Assembly: GCF_004010195.1 (NCBI RefSeq)
Contig: NC_057718.1
Location: forward strand, 40,563,362 to 40,604,603
Reading direction: 5' to 3'
Length of the DNA stretch: 41,242 bases
DNA from: Chiloscyllium plagiosum
Lineage: Eukaryota
In this document: piece by piece, positions 3,960-30,474 of the stretch
How the letters are laid out: each line of letters opens with the position of its first letter
Position numbering within the stretch: the first letter of the stretch is position 1
Position numbers and translations under genes: made by a program
Notes under the pieces: model-generated
Told to the model about the DNA's origin: nothing
The model's input: only the letters and a program-made list of their open reading frames with translations
The model's database searches: none

Positions 3960-4176
3960 ACCAAAAACTGCACATGCTGAGGGATCTGAAACAAAAACAG
4001 AAATTGTTAGAGAAATCCAAAAGGTCTGGCAACATCTGGGGAGAGAAAGCATCATCAATGTTCTGGATCCAGTGACCCTTCATCAGAATTAATTCACTGG
4101 ACCCAAACTGTGGACTCAGCTTTCCCTCTATGCTGCCAGACCTGCTGAGTTTCTCCAACAATTTCTGTTTTTATTT
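3960..4176. mobile_element. Fold-back (inverted) PLE pLTR pair
   Basis: 3989-4035 is an imperfect reverse complement of 4130-4176. Minus-strand HHR core (cccttcatcagaa ~4076-4088) lies at the axis. atttgagc occurs at both 3937-3944 and 4173-4180. Confidence 0.75.
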
Positions 4177-4358
4177 GAGCAACGCTTGAAACAAAAATAG
4201 TTTCTTTATAAGCTAATAAACTATCAAAGCAACAATCTCACATTATCCAGGACAGTATGCAAGCAATTCCTGCATCACGAATTATGAGTTTCCTGGAAAG
4301 CAGTCAGAAGCTATTTATGTCACTTTTAAACAACAAAACAGACAGCTTGTCCTGTTCC

Positions 4359-4695: not shown

Positions 4696-5995
4696 AAGAG
4701 GTGAAAGTGAGGACTGCAGATGCTGGAGATTGGAGTTGAGAGTGGAAAAGTACAGCAGGTCAGACAGCATCTGAGGAACAGGAGAATCGATGTTTCGGGC
4801 AAAAGGCCTTCATCAAGAATGAGGCTAGGAGCCTCAGGGGGAGAGAGAAAAATGGGAGGGGCTGGGCTAAGGGGAAGGTAGCTGAGATCAATAGGTGGAT
4901 GGAGGTGAGGGTAATGGTGATAGGTCAGAGGGGAGGGTGGTGCAGACAGGTGGGAAGCAAGATGGACAGGTAGGACAGGTCATGAGCTGGAAGGTTGGAA
5001 CAGGGATAAGTTGGGGGAGGGGAAACGAGAAATCCACACTGATGCCATGGGGTTGGAGGTTCCTGAGGCAGAAGATGAGACGTTCTTCCTCCAGGTGTCG
5101 GTGGTAAGGGAATGGCAATGGAGGATGGCCAGGACCTGCATGTCCTTGGTGGAGTGGGAGGGGAAGTTGAAGTGTTCTGCCATGGGGTGGTGGGGTTGGT
5201 TGGTGTGGGTGTCCCGGAGATGTTCTTTGAAGCGCTCTGCCAGGAGGCATCCTGTCTCCCCAATGTAGAGGAGACCACATTGTGAGCAACGGATACAGTA
5301 AATGACATGTGTGGAAGTGCAGGTGAAACTTTGGTGGATATGGAAGGTTCCTTTGGGACCTTGGACAGAGGTGAGGAGGGGGGGGTAGGATGATGCAATG
5401 TATGCAGAGGTTGGTGAGGACCATGGAAGTTCTGTCCTTGTTGCAGTTGGAGGGATGGGGTTCAAGGTTTGAGGTGCGGGATGTGGATGAGATACATTGG
5501 AGGGCATCATCAACCATGTGAGGGAAAATTGCGGTCTTTAAAGAAGGGGGCCATCTGGTGTGTTCTGTGGTGGAACTGGTCCTCCTGGGAGCAGATGTGC
5601 AGAGGCAGAGGAATTGGGAATAAGGAATAGCATTTTTACAGGAGGTAGGGTGGGAGGAGGTGTAATCTAGTTGCTGTGGTAGTCAGTGGGTTTGTAGAAG
5701 ATGTAAGTGTTGAGTTGGTCACTGTTGATGGAGATGGAGAGGTCAAGGAAGGGGAGGGAGTTGTCAAAGATGGTCCAGGTGAATTTAAGGCCAGGGTGGA
5801 ATGTGTTGGTGGAGTTGATGTTCAACCTCCTCATGGGAGCATGAAGTGGCGCTGATGCAGTCACTGATGTAACAGAGGAAAAGATGGGGAATGGTGCCAG
5901 GGTAACTACGGAAGATAGACTGTTCCACGTAGCCGGCAAAGAAATAGGCATAACTGGGGCCCATGTGGGTGCCCATGGCTACCCCTTTCGTCTTC
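4696..5995 (-). mobile_element. Penelope-like element, 5'-truncated (RT C-terminal half, GIY-YIG endonuclease, pLTR); frameshifted
   Basis: ORF fragments TKGVAMGTHMGPSYAYFFAGYVEQ (PLE RT motif), FHPGLKFTWTI..LPFLDLSI..IFYKPTD, and FTCTSTHVIYCIRCSQCGLLYIGETG..LAERFKEH (GIY-YIG). pLTR with mutated HHR at ~4785-4820. Confidence 0.93.
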
Positions 5996-7206
5996 ATCAA
6001 CACATTCCACCTCGACCTTAAAAATCACCTGGACCATCTCAGACACCTCCTTCCCCTTCCTGGACCTCTGCAACTCCATCAACGGTGATCGACTCAACAC
6101 AGACATCTTCTACAAACTACTGACTCCCACAGATACCTGGATTACACTTCCTCCCAACCTACCGCCTGTAAAAATGCTATCCCTTATTCCCAATCCCTCT
6201 GACTCTGTCGTATCTGTTCCCAGGAGGACCAGTTCCACCACAGAACACACCAGATGGCCTCCTTCTTTAAAGACCGCAATTCCCCTTCTACGTGGTTGAT
6301 AATGCCATCCTTCACATCTCATCCATTTCCCACACCTCTGCCCTCGAACCCCACCCCTCCAACCATAACAAGGACAGAACCGCGCTGGTCCTCACCTTCC
6401 ACCCCACCAACCTCCGTATACATGGCTTCATCCTCTGTGATTTCTGCCACCTACAAATGGACCTCACCACCAGAGATATATTTCTCTCCCCACTCCTATC
6501 TGCTTTCCGTAAAGACCGTTCCCTCTACGACTACCTCGTCAGGTCCATGCCTTCCCCTCCTGGCACCTTCCCCTGCACCGGTGGAATTGCAAAACCTGCA
6601 CCCACATCTCCCCCCTCACCTCTGTCCAAGGCCCCAAAGGAGCCTTCTACATCCATCAAAGTTTCACCTGTACATCCACACATGTCATTTATTGTATCCA
6701 TTGCTCCTGATGCGGTCTCCTCTACACTGGGGAGATGGGACGCTAATTGCAGAATGCTTCAGAGAACATCTCCGGGACACCAGCACCAACCAACTCCATC
6801 GTCCCGTATCTGAACACTTCAGATCCCCCTTCCACTCTGCCAAGGACATGCAGGTCCTGGGCCTCCTTCACCGTCACTCCATTACCACCTGAAAACTGGA
6901 GGAAGAACCTCTCATCTTCTGCCTCAGGACCCTCCACCCCCCTTGGCATCAATGTGGACTTCACCAGTTTCCTCATTTCCCCTCCCCATGTTATTCCAGT
7001 TCCAACCTTCCAGCTCAGCACTGTCCCCATGACCAGTCCTACCAGTCCATCTTGCTTCCCACCTATCCGCTTCACCCTCCCCTCCAAGCTATCACCATTA
7101 CCCCCACCTCCATCCTCCTATCGTACTCTCAGCTACCTTCTTCCCAGCCCCACCTCCCCTCCCATTTATCTCTCCACCCCCGAGGCTCCCAGACTCATTC
7201 CCGATG
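5990..7206 (+). mobile_element. Penelope-like element arm in inverted orientation (RT thumb, GIY-YIG), ending at the HHR start
   Basis: ORF fragments MASFFKDRN, NKDRTALVLTFHPTNLRI, CFREHLRD..HSAKDMQVLGLLH. Homologous to the reverse complement of 4820-5820. Ends at ctcattcccgatg (decayed cattcctgatg). Confidence 0.92.
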
Positions 7207-7969
7207 TAATGCTTTCATGCAGGTACATGAGCTCTTTTGCAAAGAATGAATGATAGCAATGGTGACCATGAATTTTCAGTCTCATGCTGGGCCAGTCTTC
7301 AATATTATACAATGCAAAATAGCAATGAACTTGAATAATCTATTTAAATGCATCTGAAGATTTCTCCACTTTTGAAATGCTGTTTTATTGCTTGACAGCA
7401 TACCAGTTTTCAAAAGTACTTCATTGACATCTCCCTTTTCCAAATGCACCACTGTCATAATTTATTTTATTAAATTGAGGTACAACTCCCTCTACAGTAT
7501 TTCATGGTGATCTATAAAGGAGGGAACACCTTTCTTACTAACATTTGATTCTTTTCTTATCCTCAGTCCATGGTTCACACCTCCACATTGCAGTTGTAAT
7601 GCGGGAAGCCTTCAAAGACGTGATTGCCTATCTGGGTATTGAAGTTCCTGAAAAGCCCATCTCCAGATGGGGTTGATACAACTTCAGACCAGTAATGTTC
7701 CTAGCCTGCTCCTTTCCCATTCTGCTGAAGGCAAACAAAAATTGGAGGAGAGACAGGACTACTGCCTTCATCGCTCAGTCCCATACTTTCCCTAACGTCT
7801 AACTCTATGCAGTATCAAAATGGGACAACATGATATGGGCCCTTGTACTTATTCTCGAGATGATTGCTTTTAAAGCTGGCAGTCATTGGCTGTCTGAAGT
7901 TGCTCAGGTTTGATACAACTTAGTTGTTTCATGGACCCTTTCAGAGGGCACATAAGAATCGATAATGTT

Positions 7970-10169: not shown

Positions 10170-10756
10170 ACATATCTCTGAAGAGACAAATGAGTTCACA
10201 TTTCAAGCCCAATGTCTGATTTTCAGCGGGGGGTGGGGTGAGAGGGAGAGGTAGGCTGGATTTTTTTATATACTGTTCACAAAGGAGGAAGAACAAGTGA
10301 ACCAAATAGTGAGGATGTCCAGATCAAAAGACAAATGAAGTGCTAACAACAGTACAATTGTTAGTTAAATGCAGAATAGGTGTTGATGGTGAATGTTAAT
10401 AGCAGAAAATAGGGAACAAATCCATGCAAAGGCAGTGGAGGGAGGTAGGGTATAATAAAATAGAGGACAGTGTACACAGTTTGAAGTTATTGAATTCAAT
10501 GTTGATTTTTGAAGACTGTAAAGTGCATAAGTGGAAAGTGAGATGCAGTTCCCCTGGCTTGCTTTGGGCTTTATTGGAACACTGCCATAGGTTGAGGACA
10601 GGAATATGAGCATGAGAGAAAGGTGGTATCTTGAAATGAAAATTAAGTCAGGATCATTGTTACGAACAGGATAGAAGTGTTCTGTAAAGTGGTCACCCAG
10701 ACTATACCTGGTCTTGCTAATGTAGAAGAGATTATGTTGTGAGACGTGAACACAGT
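10170..10756 (-). mobile_element. Old decayed Penelope-like element, 3' part (host of the CR1 insertion)
   Basis: Minus strand at ~10675-10755 translates YCVHVSQHNLFYISKTRYSLGDHFTEH, a decayed GIY-YIG matching YCIRCSQCGLLYIGETGCLLAERFKEH. Left boundary approximate. Confidence 0.65.
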
Positions 10757-10979
10757 AGAGTCATAGAGTCATAGAGATGTACAACATGGAAACAGACCCT
10801 TCGGTCCAACCTGTCCATGCCCACCAGATATCCCAACCCAATCTAGTCCCACCTGCCAGCACCTGGCCCATATCCCTCCAAACCCTTCCTATTCATATAT
10901 CCATCCAAATGCATCTTAAATGTTGCAATTGTACCAGCCTCCACCACTTTGTCTGGCAGCTCATCCCATAGAAAATTGC

Positions 10980-11008
10980 TTCCCTGACCAGGAATCGAAC
11001 CTGGGCCG
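10980..11008 (-). pseudogene. tRNA-Glu 3' fragment, copy 1 (T arm and acceptor strand)
   Basis: Minus strand cggcccaggttcgattcctggtcagggaa versus vertebrate tRNA-Glu(CTC) 3' end cggcccgggttcgattcccggtcagggaa (recalled): 2 mismatches, both CpG transitions. Confidence 0.8.
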
Positions 11009-11027
11009 AAAATCCACTGAAAATTGC

Positions 11028-11056
11028 TTCCCTGACTGGGAATCGAACCCGGGCCG
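11028..11056 (-). pseudogene. tRNA-Glu 3' fragment, copy 2
   Basis: Minus strand cggcccgggttcgattcccagtcagggaa, 1 CpG-type mismatch. Followed by gcaattttc rather than CCA. Confidence 0.82.
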
Positions 11057-11063
11057 AAAAGGG

Positions 11064-11095
11064 CTGATGAAGGGCTGATGTCCGAAACGTCGATT
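11064..11095 (+). ncRNA. Minimal hammerhead ribozyme motif, intact core
   Basis: CUGAUGA 11064-11070, stem II gggc/gucc, GAAA 11084-11087, ACGUC to 11091. The 5' strand of stem I is replaced by the captured sequence. Confidence 0.7.
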
Positions 11096-11388
11096 TCGAA
11101 GCTCCTTGGAAGCTGCCTGAACTGCTGTGCTCTTCCAGCACCACTAATCCAGAATCTGGTTTCCAGCATCTGCAGTCATTGTTTTTACCTAGCTCATTCC
11201 TTCCACATACCACCCTCTGTGTGAAAACGTTGTCCCGTATATCTCTTTTATATCTTTCTGCTCTCACCCTAAACCTATGCCCTCTAGTTCTGGACTCCAC
11301 GACCCCAGAGAAAAGACTTTGTCTATTTATCCTATCCATGCCCCTCATAATTTTGTAAACCTCTATAAGGTCACCCCTCAGCCTCCGA

Positions 11389-11708
11389 NNNNNNNNNNNN
11401 NNNNNNNNNNNNNNNNNNNNNNNNNNNNNNNNNNNNNNNNNNNNNNNNNNNNNNNNNNNNNNNNNNNNNNNNNNNNNNNNNNNNNNNNNNNNNNNNNNNN
11501 NNNNNNNNNNNNNNNNNNNNNNNNNNNNNNNNNNNNNNNNNNNNNNNNNNNNNNNNNNNNNNNNNNNNNNNNNNNNNNNNNNNNNNNNNNNNNNNNNNNN
11601 NNNNNNNNNNNNNNNNNNNNNNNNNNNNNNNNNNNNNNNNNNNNNNNNNNNNNNNNNNNNNNNNNNNNNNNNNNNNNNNNNNNNNNNNNNNNNNNNNNNN
11701 NNNNNNNN
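11389..11708. other. Assembly gap inside CR1
   Basis: Run of N. Confidence 1.
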
Positions 11709-12759
11709 AGATCCTGTTGTAATCTGAGGTAACCCTCTTCACTGTCCACTACACCTCCAATTTTGGTGTCATCTGCAAACCTATTAACTGTACCTCTTAT
11801 GCTCGCATCCAAATCATTTATGTAAATGACAAAAAGTAGAGGACCCAGCACCGATCCTTGTGGCACTCCACTGGTCACAGGCCTCCAGTCTGAAAACCAA
11901 CCCTCCACCACCACCCTCTGTCTTCTATCTTTGAGCCAGTTCTGTATCCAAATGGCTAGGTCTCCCTGTATTCCGTGAGATCAAAGCTTGCTAATCAAAG
12001 CTTCCCCCATGGGGAACCTTGTCGAATGCCTTACTGAAGTCCACAAAGATCACATCTACCACTCTGCCCTCATCAATCCTCTTTGTTATTTCTTCAAGAA
12101 ACTCAATCAAGTTTATGAGACATGATTTCCCATACACAAAGCCATGTTCACTATCCCTAATCGGTCCTTGCCTTTCCAAATACATGTACATCCTGTCCCT
12201 CAGGATTCTCTCCAACAACTTGCCCACCACCGATGTCAGGCTCACTGGTCTATAGTTCCCTGACTTGTTCTTACCACCCTTCTTAAACAGTGGCACCACG
12301 TTAGGCAACCTCCAGTCTTCTGGCACCTCACCTGTGACTATCGATGATACAAATATCTCAGCAAGGTGCCCAGCAATCACTTCTCTCTCTTCCCACAGAG
12401 TTCTCGGGTACACCTGATCAGGTCCTGGGGATTTATCCACCTTTACCGTTTCAAGACATCCAGCACTTCTTCCTTTATAATATGGACATTTTGCAAGATG
12501 TCACCATCTATTTCCGTACAGTGTATATTTTACATATCCTTTTCCACAGTAAATACTGATGCAAAATACTCATTTAGTATCTCCCCCATTTTCTGCAGCT
12601 CACACAAAGGCTGCCTTGCTGATCTTTGAGGGGCCCTATTCTCTCCCTAATTACCCTTTTGTCCTTAATGCATTTGTAAAAATTCTTTGGATTCTCCTTA
12701 ATTCTATTTGCCAAAGCTATCTCATCTCTCCTTTTTTCCCTCCTGATTTCCCTCTTAAG

Positions 12760-21244: not shown

Positions 21245-22372
21245 AGGTAAAAACAATGACTGCAGATGCTGGAAACCAGATTCTGGATTAGTGGTGCTGG
21301 AAGAGCACAGCAGTTCAGGCAGCATCCGAGGACAGGCAAAATCCGAGGACAGGCAAAATCGACGTTTCGGGAAAAAGCGCTTCATCAGGAATAAAGGCAG
21401 AGAGCCTGAAGNNNNNNNNNNNNNNNNNNNNNNNNNNNNNNNNNNNNNNNNNNNNNNNNNNNNNNNNNNNNNNNNNNNNNNNNNNNNNNNNNNNNNNNNN
21501 NNNNNNNNNNNNNNNNNNNNNNNNNNNNNNNNNNNNNNNNNNNNNNNNNNNNNNNNNNNNNNNNNNNNNNNNNNNNNNNNNNNNNNNNNNNNNNNNNNNN
21601 NNNNNNNNNNNNNNNNNNNNNNNNNNNNNNNNNNNNNNNNNNNNNNNNNNNNNNNNNNNNNNNNNNNNNNNNNNNNNNNNNNNNNNNNNNNNNNNNNNNN
21701 NNNNNNNNNNNNNNNNNNNNNNNNNNNNNNNNNNNNNNNNNNNNNNNNNNNNNNNNNNNNNNNNNNNNNNNNNNNNNNNNNNNNNNNNNNNNNNNNNNNN
21801 NNNNNNNNNNNNNNNNNNNNNNNNNNNNNNNNNNNNNNNNNNNNNNNNNNNNNNNNNNNNNNNNNNNNNNNNNNNNNCGGAAAGGTGTGGGGAGGGAAAT
21901 ATATCCCTGGTGGTGGTGTCTGTTTGGAGGTGGCGGAAATGTCGGCGGATGGTTTGGTTTATGCGAAGGTTGGTAGGGTGGAAGGTGGGCACCAGGGGCG
22001 TTCTGTCCTTGTTGCGGTTGGAGGGGTTGGGTCTGAGGGCGGAGGTGTGGGATGTGGATGAGATGCGTTGGAGGGCATCTTTGACCACGTGGGAAGGGAA
22101 ATTGCGGTCTCTGAAGAAGGAGGCCATCTGGTGTGTTCTATGGTGGAACCGCTCCTGGGAGCAGATACGGCGGAGGCGGAGGAATTGGGAATACGGGATG
22201 GCATTTTTGCAAGAGATAGGGTGGGAAGAGGTGTAATCCAGGTAGCTGTGGGAGTCGGTGGGTTTGTAGAAAATGTCAGTGTCAAGTCGGTCGTCACTGA
22301 TGGAGATGGAGAGGTCCAGGAAGGGGAGGAAGGTGTCAGAGATGGTCCAGGTAAATTTAAAGTCAGGGTGGA
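21245..22372 (-). mobile_element. Young Penelope-like element, 5'-truncated; middle lost in gap
   Basis: Open frame HPDFKFTWTISDTFLPFLDLSISI..DIFYKPTDSHSYLDYTSSHPISCKNAIPYSQFLRLRRICS. CpGs retained. pLTR 21245-21411 has HHR core (CUGAUGA 21388-21382, GAAACGUC 21368-21361) and a 17-bp tandem duplication (21324-21357). Confidence 0.95.
21412..21877. other. Assembly gap inside PLE
   Basis: Run of N. Confidence 1.
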
Positions 22373-22749
22373 TCACCCTATTTGGATGTCATAACAAAAG
22401 ATTCCATGGTAGCATTTTGTAGGACAACTGACACCTGAGGTCCTGAACAATATTTATACCTTATGCCATAAAAAGCAGATCACCACTCATTGCCATATCA
22501 CTGTTTGCTCTTGGCAAATTAACGTCTGTGTTTCCAACATTACCGCAATAACCACACTTCAAAAGTATTCCAATAACTGCAGTGCTTTGAGACTTTTGAG
22601 AAAAGTGAAAAGTGCCAAATAAATGAAAAATATTTTGAAAACACTTTGTCTTCAAAGCAGTGTCCTTAGTTTGCAATGGACTCTGTGTAATTGTGACCAT
22701 AGGTTATACAGAACTTTGACTCAAGATGTAATGAAATAATTCGAAATAG

Positions 22750-28362: not shown

Positions 28363-30268
28363 TTTGTTAATATTCTCCCTTACCTGATAAGCTCTGATAT
28401 TGAACATGTAATATTTGTACGTAACATGGGGTTAATGGGTTCAAATTGTGTCTTCAAATCTTTCAAACAATCTTCTATCATCTGGCTTTTGTGCTCCTCA
28501 GTTAGATCCAGGTTGCAATACAACTTTTGGCACTCTTTCCCCAGTACTGGAAGCAATGTTGCAACTCTTACCTGCTCAATGTTTTGAACTAATTCTCTAG
28601 CTGTTTGACAGTTCTGCCAGTGAGAGTAGAAAAATTCTAATTCTGTCTCATTTCCACAGAAGCAGAGAATAGCAAGTGCACTGCCATTTTTACTCATCTG
28701 CTATTTCGAAGTTGCAGATTTCTTTTTGACAATTTCTTTCTATCAGTACCTGACTCTCCAACAGCTCTGAATATCTACACCTTTTCAGCTATTCCGTTGT
28801 GGAACCATTTTCAAGTGATGCGTTTTTTAAAGGCCGCCACAGATTGCACACAAGGACATTTAGAGCAGAGGTCGAAGTCACTTGCTGTCAACAAATAAGC
28901 AAATAAGCAAAGGGTAAAATTGCGTTTTTCCAAACACCTACGCACTACTTGCATCCTGAGTTAAAATTAGGGATTTAATCTCCAAGGCCTTTTTTTCAAA
29001 GCAACTTGCTTTAAGAGAAATATATCATTTTACAAAAAACTGTTTTGCTCTATATAACATCCAGGAACATTTGAGGTTTTGACCCTGATCCATGCTGAAC
29101 TCACCAACCTCAAATGTACAATTACAGCATGTTGTATAAATTAAGTAATGCTTCTATAGTTGGTCTCAGTATTCTAGAGGGGGGAGAAGTAGCCAGAATT
29201 TTTTTTTAAAATGGCAGCAAGTTCTAACAGTTGTTGGTTAATGGGGTAGAAATGAAGCTGGACATGCTTTAGATTCAGCACTAGGGAGATGGTTTAAGCC
29301 TGAGCCAAGAGGCTTAAAGATTGATAGAAATTGGTTGCCTGATGAGGGAAAACTATTTCTGGCCATGTTGACAATGGCTCTCAAGCAGGTCGAGGGAATG
29401 AATTTGGAGCATGGTCAACAATTAAACATTTCACATGTTAGAAAGTGGGGTCAGGCAGTAGAGAATCCCCATTCTCTCAGCATTGAGAGTGAAATTGGTT
29501 GTATTTGCAAAGGAACCAGCCCAGTTCTATGTTTGGAAAACTAGGTCTAACATTGCAAATGATTGTATATCATGTGATGTTAACTGAAAAGTGTGTGATA
29601 TTATTCTCTTAAGAGAACTGCAATTCTGTTCCGCCTAAAGTCAGATCAGATTACCCAGTACTAGCAGAACAGAAGCTTATATAATATTCCACACATGATT
29701 CTGTCCTGCCTTTTAAGATTTTATGTCATTTAACAAGAACACTCGACACAAGTACAAGTTTGAAAACAGGAGGTCCACCTCTCAGAAAATCCATGAGGCA
29801 ATACTTTTGTTCAATTGGGATATTTATAATGTAACTCCATGTGATCTCCTCATCAGCTATTTTCTCATATTTGCTTGGCTAACTGCTTATCTTAAAATAT
29901 TCCTGCCTTTATTATTACAAATAAAGATCCTAATCTTCCATCCATTCAAGACCATCTTCTTTTCATTGATGGTCTGGTTTCACTTTTATGACTCTGCCCC
30001 TTCCACTATTTATGTCTTCTCTTCATTCTACCTTTGCATGTGACTCATAGCCTCCAGACATTTGGCAAGGTCAAAAAAACCTCCAATTTCAGCAGCTTTT
30101 GGTTTGAAGGAAGTATCCCATGATTCCCTATATTAAAATGATATACTTCTACTTTAGCTTCTGAGTATATGCATTTTCTCCTCCAGATTTAGACTAATGG
30201 TTTAGCTGTTGTTTGAAGCTGAAATCAGTTCACTAAACCTGTGGTGTAAATGCACATGAACAGTTCAA

Positions 30269-30474
30269 CCGCAAACAAAAATAGGAATTGCTGGAAAAGC
30301 TCAGTAGGTCTGGCAGATGTGTGGAAAGAAATCAGAGGAAATTCTGAGGAAGAATCACTCGACTAGGAACGTTATCTCTGATCTCTCTCCATAGATGCTG
30401 CCAGACCTGCTGAGCTTTTCCAGCAATTTCTATTTTTGTTTCTGATTTAAAGCACCCACAGATCTTTTGGTTTT
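30269..30474. mobile_element. Fold-back pLTR pair with perfect 10-bp TSD
   Basis: aaacaaaaataggaattgctggaaaagctcagtaggtctggcag pairs with ctgccagacctgctgagcttttccagcaatttctatttttgttt. aacagttcaa at 30259-30268 and 30475-30484. Confidence 0.88.

Follow-up and report, generated by a model that had tools for sequence, protein, structure and literature searches.

Antisense pre-tRNA 3' ends joined to solo Penelope-like pLTRs in Chiloscyllium plagiosum: a probable one-event insertion and a recurrent class of similar build

Endonuclease-bearing Penelope elements leave insertions with head-to-head inverted ends, whose formation is described as undefined in the accessible text of PMC8557442. Self-priming on an antisense template has been proposed for them (PMC3846280), and the word tRNA is absent from the accessible part of that paper. 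In vitro, the purified Penelope protein of a vertebrate, Poseidon of the anole, cuts both strands and extends them, starts internally on its RNA and has no need of hammerhead cleavage; the accessible text (PMC11167929) does not report template jumping by the Penelope reverse transcriptase (RT). Minimal hammerhead motifs, for which we adopted the definition given in the accessible text of PMC4209133, showed no cleavage there as monomers. For LINE-1 (L1), 21 tRNA/L1 loci are known, mostly with 5' halves (PMC13174262, accessible text). A literature search, with supplements and many subscription papers outside its range, returned no paper on the capture of tRNA or SINE RNA by Penelope elements.

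We analyzed a window of 41,242 nucleotides, the whole stretch of C. plagiosum DNA under study, in which the 3' region of a host LINE, presumably CR1-like, carries an insertion of 220 bp (10971–11190). As shown in Table 1, the insertion contains bases 44–72 of tRNA-Glu twice, followed by a solo Penelope-like pLTR; sequence comparison placed the tRNA segment antisense to the pLTR, in a head-to-head arrangement. A preliminary description of this DNA had reported a 223-bp insert between 10-bp near-duplications. An enclosing duplication is still likely, but the dimensions changed, as ATA at 10968–10970 belongs to the target LINE and the duplication is 13 bp long with three mismatches between its copies. 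Its score was reached in 22 of 59 null windows, no better than chance, so the duplication rests on collinearity with the LINE: over target positions 1–13, the left side agrees at 12 and the right side at 11 with the majority of 20 other LINE copies. No duplication adjoins the pLTR itself; the LINE target is duplicated across the full 220 bp.

Table 1. Features of the focal insertion, its host LINE and a related Penelope-like copy in the window
Feature	Position	Strand	Remarks
Host LINE 3' region, left flank	10756..10970	-	Collinear with 20 other copies
Left copy of duplicated target	10958..10970	.	13 bp; against right copy 9/10 then 1/3 identical; other LINE copies in reads extend to 10970
Outer-unit tRNA-Glu 3' trailer, first 9 nt	10971..10979	-	Same 9 nt after gene in 6/21 tRNA loci
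tRNA-Glu bases 44–72, outer copy	10980..11008	-	Two CpG transitions
Inner-unit tRNA-Glu 3' trailer, 19 nt	11009..11027	-	Ends in second T4 run; closest genomic trailers 3/19 mismatches; exact junction unique in assembly
tRNA-Glu bases 44–72, inner copy	11028..11056	-	One CpG transition; starts right after all-GC anticodon stem
Junction AAAAGGG	11057..11063	.	AAGGG re-copy of pLTR start; overlaps A4 run
Minimal hammerhead core	11064..11091	+	CUGAUGA, 4-bp stem II with one G-U, GAAA, GUC; helix I 5' strand missing
Solo Penelope-like pLTR	11064..11190	+	127 nt; 122/127 to closest other copy, L110
Right copy of duplicated target	11191..11203	.	Collinearity with other LINE copies
Host LINE continued, RT-coding pieces	11204..12500	-	Assembly gap 11389–11708; Pfam RVT_1 11711–11980 (E 4.9e-11) and 11994–12500 (E 4e-10)
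5'-truncated Penelope-like copy, same family, not the source	21245..22388	-	Starts at end of RT region; 81–87% DNA identity to 5413–5800

The focal insertion is real and of single-copy depth. Misassembly, a possibility raised at the outset, is contradicted by contigs of sequencing run X1, which tile 10939–11001, 10972–11032, 11003–11056 and 11027–11100 at depth 9–14 with 0–1 differences and so exclude it for 10939–11100. Run X7, under the same species label as X1, gave no cover of 10972–11061, and runs X8 and X13, under the other species label, gave none of 10972–11013 or 11056–11061; such contig holes prove nothing. No empty allele was seen among the reads at the site, which are swamped by LINE and pLTR repeats, and repeat contigs had high depth from 10756 onward, in the left-flank LINE. 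Comparison of 10968–11100 with its own genome (3.56 Gb) returned 44 matches, among which the focal locus alone spanned the query. The junction, whose copy number the preliminary description had left to be counted, is single-copy, so it is neither a SINE family nor a satellite. ARAGORN called no tRNA gene in the whole window, and an Rfam scan of it gave nothing beyond hairpin matches below threshold, with neither a hammerhead nor a tRNA family among them.

Read on the minus strand, each unit is the last 29 nt of this genome's tRNA-Glu, with three changes over both units, all at CpG. A tRNA gene is present at each of the 21 tRNA-side loci scanned: 13 are Glu-TTC, 7 Glu-CTC and one has a stop anticodon. 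The original assignment to tRNA-Glu(CTC) with CpG differences only was right about the tRNA and about CpG, but CTC cannot be singled out, as CTC and TTC genes end in identical 29-nt stretches. One CpG site is altered in both units, on opposite strands, which indicates that the units decayed separately from the gene state. The 48-bp period reported for the two units was reproduced (starts at 10971 and 11019, 39 of 42 positions identical), and their predicted trailer, GCAATTTTC, was present after the gene in 6 of the 21 scanned loci. The 6-nt gap between the 42-bp units had been read as a spacer; in other scanned tRNA loci AGTGGAT stands at the next position after the trailer start, so the gap is also tRNA-Glu trailer, ending in a second T4, and the inner unit carries 19 nt of trailer and the outer unit 9 nt. 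An exact donor of the junction and trailer was not found in the assembly, where an exact search gave one match and a search with two mismatches nine, the focal locus included; the closest genomic trailers differ from the 19 nt of the inner unit at three positions. Both units begin at base 44, immediately 3' of the all-GC anticodon stem (anticodon at 34). Genomic trailers continue with TTGGC or TCGCC, resembling CGGC at base 44.

The tRNA-Glu donor loci are mostly one old composite: in 13 of 15, an antisense Penelope-like (PLE) body stops ~80 nt short of the gene, where a degenerate half copy lies; L009 is without this composite, yet has the trailer. At L004, L006, L007, L011, L019, L020 and L030 (G000:C44, ~8.88–9.37 Mb, and small contigs), an antisense PLE body, a pLTR and one and a half tRNA copies have been amplified, and the intact tRNA-Glu genes in this amplified composite may be retrotransposon-made. 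L015 (region of G000:C18:20045094) has another order: a young PLE body leads directly into base 1 of a full sense tRNA-Glu-CTC gene, followed by 142 nt of flank and by a pLTR whose first base lies a few nucleotides ahead of the hammerhead cut site. At L002:739–837, the 3' half of a tRNA-Glu and its trailer are themselves duplicated in tandem (54 bp).

Since the PLE body in these 13 of 15 loci has the same orientation relative to the tRNA as at the focal locus, the focal insertion might be a deletion derivative of the old amplified cassette, or else belong to a nascent family of tRNA/hammerhead SINEs or satellites. We find either scarcely credible. The focal locus is the only one that matches across the junction; its pLTR belongs with another subfamily (122/127) and reaches at best 95–98/114 to the four full pLTRs of the tRNA-Glu cassette loci, a comparison on which deletion from the cassette was rejected; and its units match the intact gene rather than the cassette's degenerate half copy. 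The SINE-like element envisaged in the preliminary description would be a sense tRNA head with A and B boxes in multiple dispersed copies. What we found is a single-copy junction with tRNA bases 44–72 only, antisense and without the A box region. The focal locus is a dead one-off; the likely retrocopy lacks a Pol III promoter in the direction of the element, and its ribozyme is probably inactive.

The focal pLTR starts at the first core base of the minimal hammerhead, which had been described as an intact core. The core letters and stem II are kept, but AAAAGGG stands in place of the 5' strand of helix I, and the predicted fold is no better than that of shuffled sequence (z 0.21). Of the 283 related pLTR starts in the loci retrieved, 12 have AAGGG directly before the first core base, a share raised by the first query, which favoured this motif. 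Such re-copies at pLTR 5' junctions were seen at L016, L021, L022, L023, L026, L027, L029, L101, L125 and window 11059–11063, and suggest a short slip-back as the RT reaches the template end. L023 (G000:C4:37978481–37981522) also has three closely spaced pLTRs of the same subfamily that share their 5' flank, like a tandem hammerhead repeat. Hammerhead motifs occurred 29 times per 312,685 nt of flanks, or roughly ~330,000 per genome, a figure to be read with the flanks not being random.

The last 79 nt of the insertion (11112–11190) had been noted as the exact reverse complement of 21245–21323; this was confirmed (79/79), with the match extending 1 nt further. The copy at 21245–22388 had been taken for a young RT-encoding source. 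It is instead 5'-truncated, retains no more of the RT region than its end and carries a hammerhead sequence of a different subfamily. The 79-nt identity is a CpG-free family match and not a link between source and daughter. At 21879–22385 there was no Pfam match, and the atlas gave PF26215 at 0.97 with a recognition of 2090, below 2300. A GIY-YIG match at 4983–5537, beside a related pLTR and adjacent to the stretch at 5413–5800 that resembles the truncated copy, is borderline (E 1.4e-4, 22.5 bits against a cut-off of 22.6). The family is putatively Penelope-like, as assigned from the hammerhead-pLTR and from this borderline match in a related copy.

Elsewhere in the window, 4700–7215 holds two Penelope-like bodies in inverted arrangement, which include the GIY-YIG match, and 3986–4179 and 30264–30468 are short head-to-head inverted insertions of another hammerhead-bearing repeat family, with sub-threshold Rfam miRNA matches. 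In the truncated PLE copy, a 19-bp tandem duplication lies just downstream of the hammerhead (21324–21361), and stem II is also mutated.

Motif searches for an antisense tRNA T-arm upstream of a hammerhead returned 71 hits at a gap of 5–35, of which 68 were examined and three apparent duplicates left out. By eye, the 68 included no true tRNA except the focal locus; most of these short-gap hits were pLTRs that had landed in SINEs, with an adjacent duplication at 15 of 30 and 17 of 38 loci. A variant motif gave 14 hits, one of them a true tRNA (Phe). At a gap of 36–65 there were 148 hits, 100 of them listed, and 40 were fetched: six tRNA-like rows and 34 SINE rows picked by eye, which are not a random sample. 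A search in sense orientation gave 32 hits with, by eye, no true tRNA. At least seven further antisense tRNA-pLTR insertions were thereby recovered: Phe (L142), Gly (L164, L165 and L169), Arg (L166), Asp (L167) and Ile (L168). ARAGORN called four of the six tRNAs from the 36–65 search; the two uncalled Gly cases we take to be tRNA-Gly, and the Phe identity comes from matches to called Phe genes. At a relaxed score ARAGORN called almost everything on the junction flanks and was uninformative.

In all seven further cases a trailer stands in place of CCA, and the best duplication (11–19 bp) encloses the tRNA, the trailer and the pLTR. The duplication score was reached by none of 59 null windows for L142, L165, L166, L167 and L168, by two for L164 and by three for L169. 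All eight tRNA cases, the focal one included, face the same way relative to the right-hand pLTR, which is the orientation that the main searches asked for. Among the matches listed, two of the eight tRNA cases (L164 and L169) have an inverted pLTR arm that begins at the left duplication, extends as far as its hammerhead and passes straight into the RNA 3' end, trailer first, on one cDNA strand; at L169 the trailer is entered at a T7 run. Complementarity between the target end and the captured RNA was seen by eye in the Phe case, where the mismatch in the duplication matches the tRNA, and was not clear at the focal site. The preliminary description had suggested that a pre-tRNA 3' end was captured in trans at the left target end, where other insertions have an inverted pLTR arm, and that further pLTR insertions might carry antisense small-RNA ends. 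Both ideas gained support, from the trailer in tRNA-Glu loci and from at least seven more tRNA cases and the SINE cases below, which have the same build.

Tandem units are present in four of the eight tRNA cases, the focal one included, among the matches listed. At the Ile and Phe unit junctions, the terminator T-run is joined to a 5' leader of 5–7 nt (5 nt for Ile). Genomic Ile genes share the leader and the T-run and then continue with other sequence, as do the Phe genes, and in neither the Ile nor the Phe search did any of 39 other scored genomic matches span two units. Because these junctions lie at primary-transcript boundaries, RNA templates joined end to start are favoured. The data suggest an RNA template for Ile and Phe; the focal Glu units could also have been templated by DNA with slippage. 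One capture followed by tandem duplication, as first proposed, is likewise possible at the focal locus, but the tandem arrangement in four of eight cases and the Ile and Phe terminator-to-leader junctions favour serial template jumps.

In the DNA-templated version, the left end would have copied tRNA-Glu gene DNA, by RT or a repair polymerase, and slipped once to give the 48-bp tandem. Short templated extras are common at pLTR 5' junctions, there is possible CGGC-like microhomology between the trailer and base 44, the L002 locus bears a comparable 3' half and trailer duplication of its own, and L015 retains flank past the T-run. We nevertheless regard this account as unlikely: no scored genomic match spans the Ile and Phe junctions, captured SINEs extend from the tail to the 5' end, and eight of eight tRNA cases share one orientation relative to the right-hand pLTR, an agreement biased by the search and accompanied by a sense search without a tRNA by eye.

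The same junctions bear on the possibility that RNA was ligated or circularised first, a 48-nt tRNA 3' fragment with trailer being made circular or concatenated (RtcB-like) and then copied for ~1.9 rounds from the left end. The cDNA does start internally and end in AAAA, with both units starting at base 44, like a rolling copy of a 48-nt circle. However, the Ile and Phe junctions fall on the 5' ends of primary transcripts, which are expected to be triphosphorylated. RtcB ligation makes a U6/LINE-1 chimeric RNA, but RtcB needs a 2',3'-cyclic phosphate and a 5'-OH, and a 5' triphosphate strongly reduced ligation (PMC6789731, accessible text). On this balance, prior ligation of the RNA seems to us very improbable.

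SINEs, presumably HE1-like, occur in insertions of the same build. Within 30 nt of a hammerhead we counted an antisense SINE 5' end 58 times, a sense tail 61 times and an interior motif 10 times; in the fetched DNA the interior motif is commoner than the 5' end (22 vs 11). Duplications were scored in sets of 30 loci with an antisense 5' end (set A), 30 with a sense tail and 10 with an interior motif, of which 26, 23 and 8, respectively, were scorable; a distal duplication was accepted at a score of ≥10, which 8 of 300 null cases reached. Distal duplications were found in 8/26, 3/23 and 0/8 of these loci, adjacent ones in 4/26, 8/23 and 1/8, and none in 14/26, 12/23 and 7/8. In set A, each of the eight distal duplications adjoins either the SINE tail or the beginning of an inverted arm; in six of the eight such an arm leads directly from the left duplication into the RNA 3' end, on one cDNA strand. 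The captured SINEs extend from tail to 5' end. Among the matches listed, 12 of the 34 hand-picked SINE rows, which overlap with set A, had a distal duplication, or 11 after that of L194 was dropped as a likely SINE self-match. At least 11 SINE-pLTR insertions therefore have the same build inside one target duplication. Two distal duplications of the sense set (L236 and L255) include ~70 unexplained bases and may be chance. Sense SINE captures exist, and antisense ones predominate among the resolved cases. Pol III start sites are targeted by Ty3 and TRE5; an element with such targeting was rejected here, adjacent duplications being a minority in set A (4/26).

Of 22 Ile and Phe loci, 11 have a pre-tRNA fused to a SINE in sense orientation, and in these neither an abutting pLTR nor a clear duplication is present. 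Such fusions of a pre-tRNA (Phe or Ile) and its trailer to the SINE 5' end were seen at L153–L156, L161–L163, L275, L278, L283 and L285, and L283 chains a SINE, a tRNA and further SINE pieces. Another RT, that of a LINE, thus also seems to copy or jump onto pre-tRNA in this genome, and the enzyme that acted at the left end is therefore not proven. The focal locus might then record two independent events: either a pre-tRNA retrocopy made by a LINE inserted at the 5' edge of a pLTR already in place, or the pLTR inserted where such a copy ends. In favour, pre-tRNA retrocopies that no pLTR abuts are frequent in this genome, the hammerhead motifs estimated above would offer many targets, and the focal duplication is imperfect. 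We hold this to be very unlikely, however, because the LINE target is duplicated across the insertion and not beside the pLTR, the best duplication lies outside the tRNA in the seven other tRNA cases, and pLTRs that merely landed in SINEs show adjacent duplications.

Taken together, the focal insertion was probably made in one event, in which a Penelope protein primed both target ends and jumped serially between pre-tRNAs. The endonuclease would make a staggered cut ~13 bp wide. From the right end, the RT would copy its own RNA from the usual start to the 5' edge of the hammerhead and re-copy AAGGG. The second cDNA, at the left end, corresponds in other copies to the inverted pLTR arm; here it would start 9 nt into the trailer of a pre-tRNA-Glu, stall at the all-GC anticodon stem (base 44), jump to the U4 3' end of a pre-tRNA and stall at base 44 again. 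The two cDNAs would be joined via AA/AAAA microhomology, and CpG decay would follow. Against this model stand the focal duplication, with three of 13 positions mismatched and a score that is not significant, and the 61 sense SINE tails that precede a hammerhead, so that orientation is not exclusive.

A wider reading, which we offer tentatively as possible rather than probable, is that Penelope integrates by two independent target-primed cDNAs on sense RNAs and that its RT routinely switches to nuclear Pol III transcripts at their U-tailed 3' ends, so that pre-tRNAs and SINE RNAs are strung together. The inverted pLTR arm would then be the second-end cDNA and not a fold-back of antisense RNA, intact tRNA genes would be scattered, and one product would have seeded the amplified tRNA-Glu loci, a transcript of which was later recaptured here.

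Because strand, start and stop are known for Pol III transcripts, a captured pre-tRNA is a natural tracer of the copied strand, the target end and the jump sites. The class gives genomic support to the two-strand extension seen in vitro (PMC11167929, accessible text), points to a way in which tRNA genes and SINEs are spread by Penelope elements, and suggests a concrete assay, in which a U-tailed pre-tRNA is offered to purified Penelope protein.

Among described systems, as far as the accessible texts go, the tRNA/LINE-1 chimeras of the human lineage (PMC13174262) likewise combine an antisense tRNA piece and a 5'-truncated retroelement, within one target duplication as is probable here, at one-off loci attributed to twin priming. 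They involve L1 and mostly 5' halves (1–37 nt), whereas a Penelope pLTR is joined here to 3' ends or whole genes with unprocessed trailers, often in tandem and sometimes after an inverted arm. In the inverted U5/U1/U2/U6-L1 chimeras (PMC4476161), copying of a small RNA likewise starts at the second-strand cut, is primed internally and involves complementarity at the junction, but the snRNAs are 3'-truncated single pieces and the machinery is that of L1. The inverted-pLTR insertions of endonuclease-bearing Penelope elements (PMC3846280, PMC8557442) have a similar head-to-head 5' end, duplications of 8–10 bp and unrelated sequence captured between solo pLTRs; their cargo is host genes or unnamed DNA, in contrast to a Pol III transcript of known strand and ends. 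The minimal hammerheads of metazoan PLEs (PMC4209133) and non-LTR retrozymes (bioRxiv 10.64898/2026.07.22.740005) have the same minimal type I core in a pLTR. Retrozymes consist of tandem units each with a complete hammerhead, whereas the focal locus has one hammerhead motif, with the helix I 5' strand lost, no hammerhead tandem and no family, and its tandem part is tRNA-derived. Twin-primed small-RNA/L1 chimeras and the capture of host sequence by Penelope are thus already known, and the class described here appears to work like a twin-primed chimera; what is new is the different class of retroelement and the probable serial jumps on unprocessed transcripts.
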